A stretch of 15,498 bases of DNA from a virus (lineage: Duplodnaviria; Heunggongvirae; Uroviricota; Caudoviricetes). The stretch lies in the IMG/VR virus record IMGVR_UViG_2693429582_000026, one strand, 5' to 3'. Of this stretch, positions 9,065-11,746 are shown in pieces. The notes beneath the pieces were generated by a model. It was not told where the DNA came from and made no database searches. It was given only the letters and a program-made list of their open reading frames with translations. The position numbers and the translations under genes were made by a program. Position 1 is the first letter of the stretch. Every line of letters begins with the position of its first letter.

Positions 9065-9149
9065 TTCTTAAGATTTCCAATAGTGAATAGCTAGTTGAAA
9101 GGTATGCGTGGAAACGCATATGGCCTTAGTTGGTCAGATATATTGGGAC

Positions 9150-9164
9150 TCGCTTTGTCAGCGA
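9150..9164 (-). promoter_or_regulatory. nutR boxB-like hairpin (TCGCT-GACAA-AGCGA), P22-type loop
   Basis: On the - strand between cro and cII: TCGCTGACAAAGCGA. It has the same GACAA loop as the nutL boxB at 11603-11617 (GCGCTGACAAAGCGC), which matches P22 boxB from memory. Confidence 0.5.
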
Positions 9165-9202
9165 CGTAGGACGAATGTCCATTGTGAAAATAGCGGTGTT
9201 AC

Positions 9203-9403
9203 TTATGCAGTTGTTTTTTTGTTACTTGGGAAGGGCTTTATTTCTTCCGCATAAACGCTTCCATCAGCGTTTATAGTTAAAAAAATCTTTCGGCCTGCAT
9301 GAATGGCCTTGTTAATCGCGCTTTGATATACGCCGAGATCTTTAGCCGTCTTGGTTTGCCCAAAGCGTATTGCATAATCTTTCAGGGTTATGCGTTGTTC
9401 CAT
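9203..9403 (-). CDS. cro: Cro repressor
   Basis: 66 aa [66 protein letters not shown] is lambda Cro (memory). AGGAGG RBS. Confidence 0.95.
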
Positions 9404-9427
9404 ACAACCTCCTTAGTACAGGCAATC

Positions 9428-9497
9428 ATTATCACCGCTAGAGGTATAATAGTCAACACGCACGGTGTTAGATATTTATCCCTTGCGGTGATAGATT
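9428..9497. promoter_or_regulatory. OR operator region with divergent PR (to cro, - strand) and PRM (to cI, + strand)
   Basis: Three 17-bp operator sites: OR1 TATCACCGCTAGAGGTA (9430-9446), OR2 CAACACGCACGGTGTTA (9454-9470), OR3 TATCCCTTGCGGTGATA (9477-9493). PR -35 is the rc of AGTCAA (9451-9456) and -10 the rc of ATTATC (9428-9433). PRM -35 TAGATA, -10 TAGATT (9492-9497). The cI ATG sits at the expected leaderless start. Sites differ from lambda at a few positions. Confidence 0.85.
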
Positions 9498-9503
9498 TAA
9501 TGC

Positions 9504-10217
9504 ATGAGCGCAAAAAAGAAACCGTTAACACAAGAGCAGCTTGAGGACGCACGTCGCCTTAAAGCTATTTATGAAAAAAAGAAAAATGAGCTTGGCTTAT
9601 CCCAAGAATCTGTCGCAGACAAGATGGGGATGGGGCAGTCAGGTGTTGGTGCTTTATTTAATGGCATCAATGCATTAAATGCTTATAACGCAGCATTGCT
9701 TGCAAAAATTCTCAACGTTAGCGTTGAAGAATTTAGCCCTTCAATCGCCAGAGAAATCTACGAGATGTATGAAGCGGTTAGTATGCAGCCGTCACTTAGA
9801 AGTGAGTATGAGTACCCTGTTTTTTCTCATGTTCAGGCCGGGATGTTCTCGCCTGAGCTTAGAACCTTTACCAAAGGTGATGCGGAGAGATGGGTAAGCA
9901 CAACCAAAAAAGCCAGTGATTCTGCATTTTGGCTTGAGGTTGAAGGTAACTCAATGACCGCACCAACAGGTTCCAAACCCAGTTTTCCTGACGGGATGTT
10001 AATTCTTGTTGACCCTGAGCAGGCTGTTGAGCCAGGTGATTTCTGCATAGCCAGACTTGGGGGTGATGAGTTTACCTTCAAGAAACTGATCAGGGATAGC
10101 GGTCAGATGTTTCTACAGCCACTAAACCCACAATACCCAATGATCCCATGCAATGAGAGTTGTTCCGTTGTGGGGAAAGTTATCGCTAGTCAGTGGCCTG
10201 AAGAGACGTTTGGGTGA
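9504..10217 (+). CDS. cI: CI repressor (lambda immunity type, LexA-like autocleaving C-terminal domain)
   Basis: 237 aa [70 protein letters not shown]... is near-identical to lambda CI from memory (differences noted at residue 3 and at a few other positions). Confidence 0.97.
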
Positions 10218-10287
10218 TGAAGGGCTAAATGTCTCCTAATAAAAACAGCAATCATTTGAAATTATTAATAATTATAGAGGCTTAGTC

Positions 10288-11286
10288 TTGGAAATCAGCA
10301 CGGCGGTTATTCATTCCGAAGAAGATGCTTTGCGTTTTGTTGAGATGTACATCGCTGGGCAAGATCTTCCTGATGGAATATCATTTGAAGGGTGGCCTAA
10401 CTTAACCTTCCGTCTTACTGGTGACAAATTTCATGGCAGTTTGACTCCTTCTGTCATGAAGGGTTTTGTTGAAATGCAGGCCCAAATAAACCGAGCTTAT
10501 GCATTGTTAAAGTACGGAGTTCCTGACCCAAGAAAGCTTTCAAAAGAAGAGAAGGAAGCTATCGAAATTCAGGTGAATGTTGAGAATGGCTCGTCCTTGA
10601 TAGAAGTTAATATGGATGGGTTCATGGGTGAGGTTATACAAACTGCGGTGAGTAAAGTGGGCCCTCAAGAGATCGTTATTACAGTTTTAGGGGTCGCTCT
10701 TATATGGGGCGGCGTCGTCCTATTCAAAAAATATCTAGAAGACCGCAAAGAGATTCGCATGGCAGAAGTAAAAAGCGAGTCTGAGCGTGAACACCTTGCG
10801 ACCATGCGCTTCATGTCTGAGCAGGAAACAAAACGAAGTGAATTATTGACTCAGATTATTAGCGAAAAACCCAAGCTAGACAACATGGAAAGACTTGCTC
10901 ATGACGCAAAAACCGACATAGTTAAATCATTTGTCAAGGCTGATACAGCTCAGATTGATGGCGTTGTATTGGATGCAGATCTATCCAAAACCCTCACTAC
11001 AAATGCAAGGCGGAAATCAATGGAGATCCGCCTTGATGGAAATTATCGCATTGAAAAGGTTGACTCCACTGATCCAGAGAGCTTCAAAGTGCAAGTGAGA
11101 AATGTTGACTCCGATCTAAGAATATCGTGCATAGTACAAGATGTTTTTCTCGACGCATCCGAGCATAAAAAAGCTCTTCAGCAAGCTGAGTGGGATAGAA
11201 AACCAGTTCATTTGTCAATCAACGCAAAAGAACTAGATGGTGAAATAAAGTCCGCGATAATACTTTATGTCAAAGAGATAACATAA
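10288..11286 (+). CDS. Uncharacterised 332-aa protein with one central transmembrane helix, in the rexA/rexB slot of the immunity operon; candidate exclusion or abortive-infection factor
   Basis: Track ORF beginning at TTG 10288 (AGAGG 7 nt upstream); the first ATG is at 10345. Hydrophobic segment EIVITVLGVALIWGGVVLF sits mid-protein, followed by a charged, helix-like C-terminal half. Lies directly downstream of cI and is followed by the terminator at 11294-11320. No similarity to RexA/RexB that I can recognise. Confidence 0.6.
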   Translation: MEISTAVIHSEEDALRFVEMYIAGQDLPDGISFEGWPNLTFRLTGDKFHGSLTPSVMKGFVEMQAQINRAYALLKYGVPDPRKLSKEEKEAIEIQVNVENGSSLIEVNMDGFMGEVIQTAVSKVGPQEIVITVLGVALIWGGVVLFKKYLEDRKEIRMAEVKSESEREHLATMRFMSEQETKRSELLTQIISEKPKLDNMERLAHDAKTDIVKSFVKADTAQIDGVVLDADLSKTLTTNARRKSMEIRLDGNYRIEKVDSTDPESFKVQVRNVDSDLRISCIVQDVFLDASEHKKALQQAEWDRKPVHLSINAKELDGEIKSAIILYVKEIT

Positions 11287-11293
11287 TCCTCAT

Positions 11294-11320
11294 CCCGGCC
11301 TCAGCGCCGGGTTTTCTTTG
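11294..11320 (+). terminator. Rho-independent terminator ending the cI / rex-slot transcript (tIMM-like)
   Basis: CCCGGC-(6-nt loop)-GCCGGG followed by TTTTCTTTG. Confidence 0.6.
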
Positions 11321-11471
11321 CCTCACGATCGCCCCACCTAAAAACACATAACCAATTGTATTTGTTGAAAAATAAATAGATACAACTCACTAAACATCGC
11401 AATTCTGATCTCTCGCCCTCCAAAGCAATACCCCAATTCAAAAAATAAATTCATATAAAAAACATACAGAT

Positions 11472-11534
11472 AACCATCTGCGGTGATGAGTTATCTCTAG
11501 CGGTGTTGACACAAATACCACTAGCGGTGATACT
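11472..11534 (+). promoter_or_regulatory. OL operators and PL promoter
   Basis: Three operator-like sites (AACCATCTGCGGTGATG, TATCTCTAGCGGTGTTG, TACCACTAGCGGTGATA) with PL -35 TTGACA (11506-11511) and -10 GATACT (11529-11534), 17-bp spacer. Very close to the lambda PL/OL sequence (memory). Confidence 0.8.
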
Positions 11535-11602
11535 AAACACATCAGCAGGACGCACTACTCACCAGGGCGGTGAATATACAACGATTCGAATATGAATCTA
11601 CG

Positions 11603-11617
11603 GCGCTGACAAAGCGC
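11603..11617 (+). promoter_or_regulatory. nutL boxB hairpin (GCGCT-GACAA-AGCGC), P22-type
   Basis: Perfect 5-bp stem with a 5-nt loop between PL and N; matches P22 boxB as I recall it. Confidence 0.55.
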
Positions 11618-11746
11618 AATAACCAAAGTGAACTTTGGGGTGAATGCAGAAGCTAACCTTCTCGGCGGAGGCGCTTTGCAATGATTACGCGACCGGAGTT
11701 AGTCGCCCGGCTGTATTCACCGCCAAAGTTCATCAGGAGGTTCCAT

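Follow-up and report, generated by a model that had tools for sequence, protein, structure and literature searches.

The DNA analysed here (the window, 15,498 nt) is identical over its whole length (100%) to NZ_CP193495.1, where it belongs to a prophage of E. coli O103 ML775 that adjoins torI/dsdC. The genes and sites of its regulatory circuitry are arranged as follows, in window coordinates.

2096–2178, minus strand: PR', qut and tR' cognate to Q, with coordinates carried over from the VT2-Sakai annotation.
2166–2600, minus strand: late antiterminator Q, 144 aa, of the Q21/Q933W/QuuD family (PF06530, E=1.3e-51).
8768–9064, minus strand: cII, HK97-type allele (PF05269, E=1.2e-32).
9150–9164, minus strand: nutR boxB, TCGCTGACAAAGCGA, loop GACAA, identical to the nutR boxB of HK97.
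9187–9195, minus strand: nutR boxA, CGCTATTTT, one base (C>A) off the CGCTCTTTT of HK97 and mEp234.
9203–9403, minus strand: cro, lambda allele, 66 aa, M12I and V55I relative to lambda (PF09048; alignment).
9428–9433 (-10) and 9451–9456 (-35): promoter PR, from a consensus scan.
9430–9446: OR1, TACCTCTAGCGGTGATA, G8>A relative to lambda.
9454–9470: OR2, exactly the lambda sequence.
9477–9493: OR3, exactly the lambda sequence.
9469–9474 (-35, TAGATA) and 9492–9497 (-10, TAGATT): promoter PRM, read from the sequence.
9504–10217, plus strand: cI repressor, 237 aa, T3A, K71N and V202M relative to lambda (Pfam HTH_3 and Peptidase_S24).
10288–11286, plus strand: uncharacterised single-pass membrane protein, 332 aa, accessory cargo (phrog_6191, function unknown).
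11294–11320, plus strand: Timm-like intrinsic terminator at the end of the cI operon, from a consensus scan; similarity to lambda restarts here.
11472–11488: OL3, AACCATCTGCGGTGATG, final base A>G relative to lambda.
11492–11508: OL2, TATCTCTAGCGGTGTTG, G8>A relative to lambda.
11506–11511 (-35) and 11529–11534 (-10): promoter PL, from a consensus scan.
11516–11532: OL1, TACCACTAGCGGTGATA, G8>A relative to lambda.
11603–11617, plus strand: nutL boxB, GCGCTGACAAAGCGC, loop GACAA, identical to the nutL boxB of P22 and of HK97.
11628–11735, plus strand: long stem in the N leader, directly upstream of the N ribosome-binding site, from an RNA fold.
11747–12130, plus strand: early antiterminator N, 127 aa, HK97/933W/BP-4795 allele (PF25694).

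The immunity module is lambda-like throughout cro, OR, cI and OL/PL, as had been predicted, with blastn identities of 96.1% over 9189–10218 and 89.6% over 11294–11573; the cro-OR-cI segment is 96% identical to lambda and also to HK97. Alignment of the regulators places 3 of the 237 cI residues and 2 of the 66 Cro residues apart from lambda, every residue of the cI helix-turn-helix and the corresponding region of Cro being unchanged. The six 17-bp operators over PR/PRM and PL keep the spacing and promoter hexamers of lambda, and four of the six differ by one base each. The G8>A form CTAGCGGTG occurs exactly three times in the window (OR1, OL2 and OL1; 0.04 expected by chance), and lambda carries CTGGCGGTG at OR1, OL1 and OL2. 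The features that mark lambda immunity at the sequence level, namely lambda-like DNA-recognition residues in cI and Cro and six operators with lambda spacing, are thus all present.

Both nut sites have a boxB with the GACAA loop that was originally noticed (CGCTGACAAAGCG at 9151–9163 on the minus and at 11604–11616 on the plus strand; two occurrences against 0.00 expected). N is 100% identical to N of BP-4795 and 97.6% identical to N of HK97 and of the EDL933 Stx phage, and its leader is predicted to be strongly folded (11546–11760, minimum free energy -72.4 kcal/mol, z = -4.09). With N 97.6–100% identical, both boxB elements the same as in HK97 and a single mismatch in nutR boxA, the N/nut module is, by sequence comparison, the well-known HK97/H-19B/933W-type allele and not P22-type overall. 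The cII protein, correctly recognised as a non-lambda allele, is 96% identical to that of HK97 and 35% to that of lambda; BLASTP gave no alignment with P22 C1. A TTGC-N6-TTGT motif is present at 9042–9055 (plus strand), where pRE is expected.

For Q, an assignment to the "82/DLP12 type" had been proposed, of which the DLP12 half stands (80% identity to QuuD) and the phage 82 half does not. The Q82 family is PF06323 and the Q21/Q933W family PF06530 (PMC9388147), and a Pfam scan of Q at E<=0.01 returned PF06530 alone, with neither PF06323 nor any other Q family. Family assignment in Pfam thus places Q in the Q21/Q933W/QuuD family, apart from the Q of phage 82. The protein is 95–100% identical to Q of Stx phages (97% to that of VT2-Sakai) and shows distant similarity to 6JNX and 6P18, two structures of Q21 (E=8e-7). 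Qin QuuQ was considered as a stand-in for the Q of phage 82 and was dropped, as QuuQ belongs to PF03589, the lambda-Q family. Downstream of Q, the mean column identity to VT2-Sakai is ~95%, with no indels within 2096–2178. Both Q and cII are located outside the interval (9100–11620) to which the original prediction referred.

The 332-aa cargo gene is the most interesting item of the region. Its 999 bp account for 40% of the same interval, and it went unmentioned there. The gene is flanked by the cI stop codon on one side and by Timm on the other, which is exactly the place of rexAB in lambda; in other phages, this slot holds BstA-type genes. The protein has 122 homologs. Its family, phrog_6191, comprises ~120 members, and most of those with a named host group are from Enterobacterales; Pseudomonas, Pasteurellaceae, Oceanospirillaceae and Caballeronia contribute one hit each. 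A hydrophobic helix at residues ~128–146 is conserved, and the AlphaFold2 model (pLDDT 85) predicts an alpha/beta domain at the N-terminus and an OB-like barrel at the C-terminus, with the conserved transmembrane helix and long helices between them. Searched with Foldseek, the model retrieved weak OB-fold matches only from the PDB (E ~0.01–0.1) and three uncharacterised phage proteins from BFVD. There was no gathering-level Pfam match, only a sub-threshold aRib, and none from PADLOC or NCBIfam; these three resources revealed no homology to RexA/RexB or to catalogued defence proteins, position alone being shared. A full-text literature search for the protein (WP_000406300) found no mention. Tentatively, the product could act in phage exclusion or abortive infection as a membrane-anchored, single-gene system of a new kind, and it would be sensible to include the gene in a defence screen.

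Collectively, the window is understood as the early control region of an E. coli lambdoid prophage that combines lambda immunity with known non-lambda modules, all probably working as their homologs do (probability roughly 0.9, judged from sequence). The similarity breaks fall at nutR boxA, the cI stop codon, Timm and a point ~25 nt into the PL transcript, which are the joints expected for modular exchange, as had been predicted. The general idea of lambda-type immunity joined at conserved joints to non-lambda antiterminator and cII modules holds. In the circuit so composed, CI would act as it does in lambda, binding OR1–3 and OL1–3, repressing PR and PL and activating PRM. The cI transcript would run on through the cargo gene to Timm and, given this placement between cI stop codon and terminator, the lysogen should express the cargo as a lambda lysogen does rexAB. 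On induction, the HK97/H-19B-type N would bind the GACAA-loop boxB of nutL and nutR, allowing RNA polymerase to pass terminators; the HK97-type CII would work at pRE, and the Q21/Q933W-family Q at a qut/PR' with ~95% identity to its counterpart in VT2-Sakai, an Stx2 phage.

The substitutions in the immunity module might be read differently, as creating a new immunity specificity or a markedly altered affinity of the repressor. The same G8>A is found in three operators, next to the end-base change in OL3, and cI T3A is situated in the N-terminal arm, the part of lambda repressor that contacts the operator centre in the repressor-operator structure. However, OR1 G8>A occurs together with cI T3A in HK97, mEp234 and HK244, and the OR1 variant is found also in prophages of RM10410, strain 1190, O104:H4 and ECO20. 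From the sharing of cI T3A and the OR1 variant with these three phages we infer cross-immunity with lambda. The recognition helices of both cI and Cro are those of lambda. In OL1 and OL2 the substitution is the one already tolerated in OR1, and the C at position 1 that constitutes the OL3 change has precedents within lambda, in half-sites of OR2 and OL2. The O104:H4 prophage carries the same cI protein accession and pairs it with a lambda-type OL, which shows that OL varies independently of cI. A linkage between cI T3A and operator G8>A had been considered and was rejected, since the presence of the OL variants does not depend on which cI allele is there. Because T3A and OR1 G8>A are both present in every non-lambda sequence examined, their pairing fits one event in a common ancestor. 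Counting against a lambda-like reading, none of the sequenced lambda-immunity phages HK97, mEp234 and HK244 has G8>A in OL1 or OL2, and their precedent consequently does not cover the affinity of these two operators for CI. On balance, a change of specificity, as raised in the original prediction, is very unlikely; the immunity should be that of lambda, and the operator changes should represent natural polymorphisms. Direct descent of N/nut from P22 or from a close Salmonella relative, which would make the module truly P22-type with P22 N specificity, is more improbable still. Its appeal comes from nutL boxB, which is the same as in P22 over all 15 nt, from the loop shared by the P22 nutR boxB CCGCCGACAACGCGG and the TCGCTGACAAAGCGA of the prophage, and from the proteins: GN..RR.ER is common to both arginine-rich motifs, the arginine-rich core agrees with P22 at 7 of 15 positions, and N and gp24 share the C-terminus VALYAAG(Y/H)RKSKQ(L/I)TAR. 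These resemblances hold but, against the P22-type N/nut that had been claimed, N is not the P22 allele. BLASTP aligned only the last ~30 residues of N (99–127) with gp24, at 70% identity, and found no full-length homology, as compared with 97.6% identity to HK97 N. The middle of N is unrelated to P22 (127 aa in the prophage versus 100 aa), and the arginine-rich core is about equally close to that of lambda, with which it shares RRRER. Blastn matched no part of nutL-N or of nutR to P22, and nutL shows no recognisable P22-like boxA at the position where P22 has a clear one, CGCTCTTTA, 5' of boxB.

A further explanation, doubtful but considerably more probable than the two just discussed, sees in the circuitry the decaying relic of a cryptic prophage in which selection keeps only cI and the cargo, with N, nutR and the replication genes left to drift. 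A 28-bp deletion in the iterons shifts the reading frame of O, so that replication of the prophage is probably defective; in the early-left region, the Rad52-like and theta-like genes are pseudogenes. These lesions imply that parts of the circuit may have lost selection, and the C>A change in nutR boxA could be seen in the same light. Against decay of the circuit itself, the six operators and the genes cI, cro, cII, N, P and Q are all intact, annotation gives the capsid, terminase and lysis genes as intact too, and the boxA variant recurs in a second prophage (ECO20). The relic reading is moreover compatible with the lambda-immunity mosaic and does not exclude it.

Mosaic swapping of immunity, N/nut, cII and Q modules between lambdoid phages is textbook knowledge. 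Each module found here is already known, and their combination, lambda repressor and operators with the antiterminators of HK97 and Shiga-toxin phages, is common and already described: the junction of lambda OL with GACAA nutL is present in 111 of 5,426 complete E. coli genomes (~2%). The regulatory circuit by itself is thus of little significance, the combination being present in sequenced phages. For annotation, such prophages are best entered as lambda-immune, with N as HK97/H-19B-type rather than P22-type and Q as belonging to the Q21/Q933W family rather than Q82.

Among the closest known systems are the immunity regions of HK97, mEp234 and HK106. The mEp234 and HK244 records (GenBank EF120457 and EF120460), which we take to originate from the study of Degnan et al. 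2007, annotate operators, promoters, nut sites and a Timm equivalent in a matching arrangement. That study, as cited in PMC8585504, gives its phages lambda's immunity specificity in its title and is the reference cited where the cI-N interval is called a mosaic hotspot. HK97, mEp234 and HK106 are wild phages with lambda immunity according to Juhala et al. 2000 (as cited in PMC2629481) and Degnan et al. 2007 (as cited in PMC8585504). They show the same order as the prophage, N(HK97-type)-nutL(GACAA)-OL-Timm-[cargo]-cI-OR-cro-nutR(GACAA)-cII(HK97-type), with cI one residue and Cro three residues apart, OR1–3 the same including OR1 G8>A, and N and cII 97.6% and 96% identical. Differences lie in OL1, OL2 and OL3, each one base off in the prophage, and in the N leader (nutL to N), for which the prophage has another allele. 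The cargo slot is filled by gp48/gp49 in HK97 and by hicAB plus one ORF in mEp234 and HK106, compared to the 332-aa gene of the prophage. The replication genes of the prophage are lambda O/P as opposed to the P22-like gp18 and DnaB-type helicase of HK97, and its Q is Q933W-type whereas that of HK97 is lambda-type (PF03589).

Lambda itself (NC_001416) resembles the prophage in cI, Cro, OR2, OR3, PR, PRM, PL and Timm, and further in O, P and ren (94.5% DNA identity). It departs from the prophage in having rexA-rexB in the cargo slot, boxB loops GAAAA (nutR) and GAAGA (nutL) where the prophage has GACAA in both, N and cII proteins with ~29–35% identity to those of the prophage, and a Q of PF03589 instead of PF06530. 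The late control region finds its counterpart in the Stx phages, the block comprising PR', qut, tR' and three tRNA genes being ~95% identical to that of VT2-Sakai; in the prophage, the stx genes of 933W and VT2-Sakai are absent, and genes for a TerB-family protein and a DUF3927 protein are found in their place.

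Sequence comparison across the window establishes a known and common mosaic, in which lambda immunity is joined to N/nut and cII of the HK97/H-19B type, lambda O/P and a Q of the Q933W/QuuD type. The features themselves hold up and lie far outside chance expectation. The junction of a lambda-type OL with a GACAA nutL, sought as a 201-bp stretch at coverage of 80% or more, is present in 111 of 5,426 complete E. coli genomes. Over its whole length the window matches the E. coli O103 strain ML775 chromosome (NZ_CP193495.1) at 100% identity, and the lambdoid prophage containing it adjoins torI/dsdC, its orientation reversed relative to the lambda map. 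From the ORF list, Pfam scan and RefSeq annotation, the gene order in the + direction is as follows.

872-1375, TerB-family gene, first in the order together with three tRNA genes
2166-2600, - strand, Q, then NinH, NinG and a mosaic nin region
7864-8735, - strand, frameshifted O, preceded by P, the two lying between the nin region and cII
8768-9064, - strand, cII
9203-9403, - strand, cro
9504-10217, + strand, cI
10288-11286, + strand, ORF of 332 aa after cI
about 11470-11535, OL/PL, then nutL
11747-12130, + strand, N, then early-left genes, the last at torI

The nin region also holds two neighbouring antirepressor-like genes, one with a KilAC domain (3389-4117, -) and one with a P22AR C-terminal domain (4186-4920, -).

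Similarity to lambda either stops or starts again at four points, namely 14 nt after the cro stop codon at nutR boxA, at the cI stop codon, at Timm (the terminator of the cI operon) immediately after the position of lambda rexB, and about 25 nt inside the PL transcript; these are conserved joints, as the original prediction had expected. Its lambda-like cI, cro, OR and OL/PL are equally borne out by blastn identities to lambda of 96.1% for cro-OR-cI (9189-10218) and 89.6% for Timm-OL-PL (11294-11573). OR2 and OR3 have exactly the lambda sequence, OR1 (TACCTCTAGCGGTGATA), OL1 (TACCACTAGCGGTGATA) and OL2 (TATCTCTAGCGGTGTTG) carry the same change at operator position 8 (G8>A), and OL3 ends in G where lambda has A. 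The variant motif named in the original prediction, CTAGCGGTG, occurs exactly three times, always in an operator, against a chance expectation of 0.04. PR and PL, found by consensus scan, retain their hexamers and spacing. The cI protein differs from that of lambda by T3A, K71N and V202M, and Cro by M12I and V55I; the helix-turn-helix segments of both are the same as in lambda.

That the operator substitutions alter immunity specificity, as had been suggested, is unlikely, and they probably do not matter. OR1 G8>A is found together with cI T3A in HK97, mEp234 and HK244; the records of the latter two, presumably the work of Degnan et al., whose title (cited in PMC8585504) ascribes lambda’s immunity specificity to the phages studied, annotate operators, promoters, nut sites, Timm and ‘boundary sequences’. 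The OL1 and OL2 variants repeat the substitution already tolerated at OR1, and the OL3 variant places C at half-site position 1, as in lambda’s own OR2 and OL2. Absent from HK97, mEp234 and HK244, the OL variants are shared by further E. coli prophages (RM10410 has all three, strain 1190 and ECO20 have subsets), and an O104:H4 prophage has an identical cI protein yet a lambda-type OL; the OL variants are therefore independent of the repressor allele. From these sequences we infer, with high confidence, lambda immunity for the prophage.

The GACAA loop proposed for both boxB hairpins is there, CGCTGACAAAGCG being present in each (2 matches against 0.00 expected). The nutL boxB, GCGCTGACAAAGCGC, is the same in P22 and HK97; the nutR boxB, TCGCTGACAAAGCGA, is that of HK97, whereas P22 has CCGCCGACAACGCGG and shares the GACAA loop. 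Since the loop occurs in both hairpins and the nutL boxB is exactly P22’s, that observation was correct. The wider claim of a P22-type N/nut module does not hold: blastn gives no P22 DNA match to the module, P22 gp24 aligns with the prophage N in BLASTP over the last 30 residues only (70%), and N is 97.6% identical to that of HK97, EDL933-Stx and HK106 and 100% identical to that of BP-4795. The P22-like C-terminus of N stands for these residues; the arginine-rich motif alone cannot separate P22 from lambda, because the core GNSRSRRRERLKAKA matches P22 GNAKTRRHERRRKLA at 7 of 15 positions in a multiple alignment, yet shares RRRER with lambda N. As a whole, the N/nut module is assigned by sequence similarity to the HK97/933W/BP-4795 allele. 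For H-19B N, taken to be a close relative, there is biochemical work at the cognate nutR (PMC3526286).

Differences from HK97 are seen in nutR boxA (9187-9195, -), which has CGCTATTTT against CGCTCTTTT in HK97 and mEp234, a variant also present in the ECO20 prophage, and in the allele of the leader between nutL and N. In this leader (11628-11735, +) a long stem (z = -4.09) lies directly upstream of the N Shine-Dalgarno sequence, a position similar to that of lambda N’s RNase III-sensitive leader structure. RefSeq starts N at an upstream ATG and gives it 149 aa (11681-12130, +); the canonical N of 127 aa, which aligns with HK97 N over its full length, begins at 11747 after an AGGAGG ribosome-binding site.

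The predicted non-lambda cII was confirmed, with 96% identity to HK97 cII, 35% to lambda cII and no BLASTP alignment to P22 C1. O, P and ren are lambda-type (94.5% identity), but O has, relative to lambda, a 28-bp deletion near 8290-8330 that removes one of four ori iterons and shifts the frame. Because of this deletion and the frameshift flag that O also carries in RefSeq, the prophage is probably replication-defective. RefSeq further shows a truncated Rad52/Rad22-family recombinase gene and a DNA polymerase III theta-like gene with an internal stop (14160-14739, +), both additional evidence of prophage decay.

The interval between cI and N is a mosaic hotspot according to Degnan et al., in the passage quoted in PMC8585504. 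Among prophages, the slot between the cI stop codon and Timm holds rexAB (as in lambda), a DUF3024 gene with two ORFs, a DUF1828 gene with one ORF, hicAB, KilA-N and BstA-type genes, or the 332-aa gene (WP_000406300.1), which here fits the slot exactly and takes up 40% of the interval covered by the original prediction, where it went unmentioned. It belongs to phrog_6191 (PHROGs label: function unknown), with no gathering-level Pfam, NCBIfam or PADLOC match. The 122 homologs found, where named, are mostly from Enterobacterales, with single ones in Pseudomonas, Pasteurellaceae, Oceanospirillaceae and Caballeronia. Its confident AlphaFold2 model (pLDDT 85, 33-sequence alignment) has an alpha/beta domain at the N-terminus, a hydrophobic helix, long helices and, at the C-terminus, an OB-like beta-barrel region; the hydrophobic helix (about residues 128-146) is conserved in position in 33 of 33 relatives, and the protein is an uncharacterised, predicted single-pass membrane protein. 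Foldseek returned only weak OB-fold matches in the PDB and three uncharacterised phage proteins in BFVD (E about 5e-6). Homologs are seen as single-gene morons in other prophage accessory slots; the Pectobacterium relative lies between Q and holin on the opposite strand, and that of Caballeronia stands alone on the chromosome. Judged by its place in the cI operon, the gene may be expressed in the lysogen and act in exclusion or defence. This cargo gene is the single open lead in an otherwise familiar mosaic.

Of the ‘82/DLP12’ label attached to Q, ‘DLP12-type’ is right and ‘82-type’ wrong, because PF06530 is the sole Pfam match (E=1.3e-51), DLP12 QuuD is 80% identical and Stx-phage Q 95-100%. 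The separation from Q82 is one of Pfam family: PF06530 represents Q21/Q933W, PF03589 lambda-Q and PF06323 the Q82 family (Ebright-lab papers, PMC9388147). Similarity to Q21 in the structures 6JNX and 6P18 is distant. QuuQ of the E. coli K-12 Qin prophage (ydfT/quuQ, 6490-7242 of that sequence, L019), considered as a Q82-family representative, was rejected because it belongs to the lambda-Q family (PF03589). Within 872-2600 (-), a stretch that includes a DNA-methylase fragment (1765-1878), the block formed by Q, PR', qut, tR' and the three tRNA genes shows about 95% identity to the Stx2 phage VT2-Sakai as far as the stx2A start; in the toxin slot, where VT2-Sakai has stx2A, the prophage carries the TerB-family gene (872-1375) together with a DUF3927 gene.
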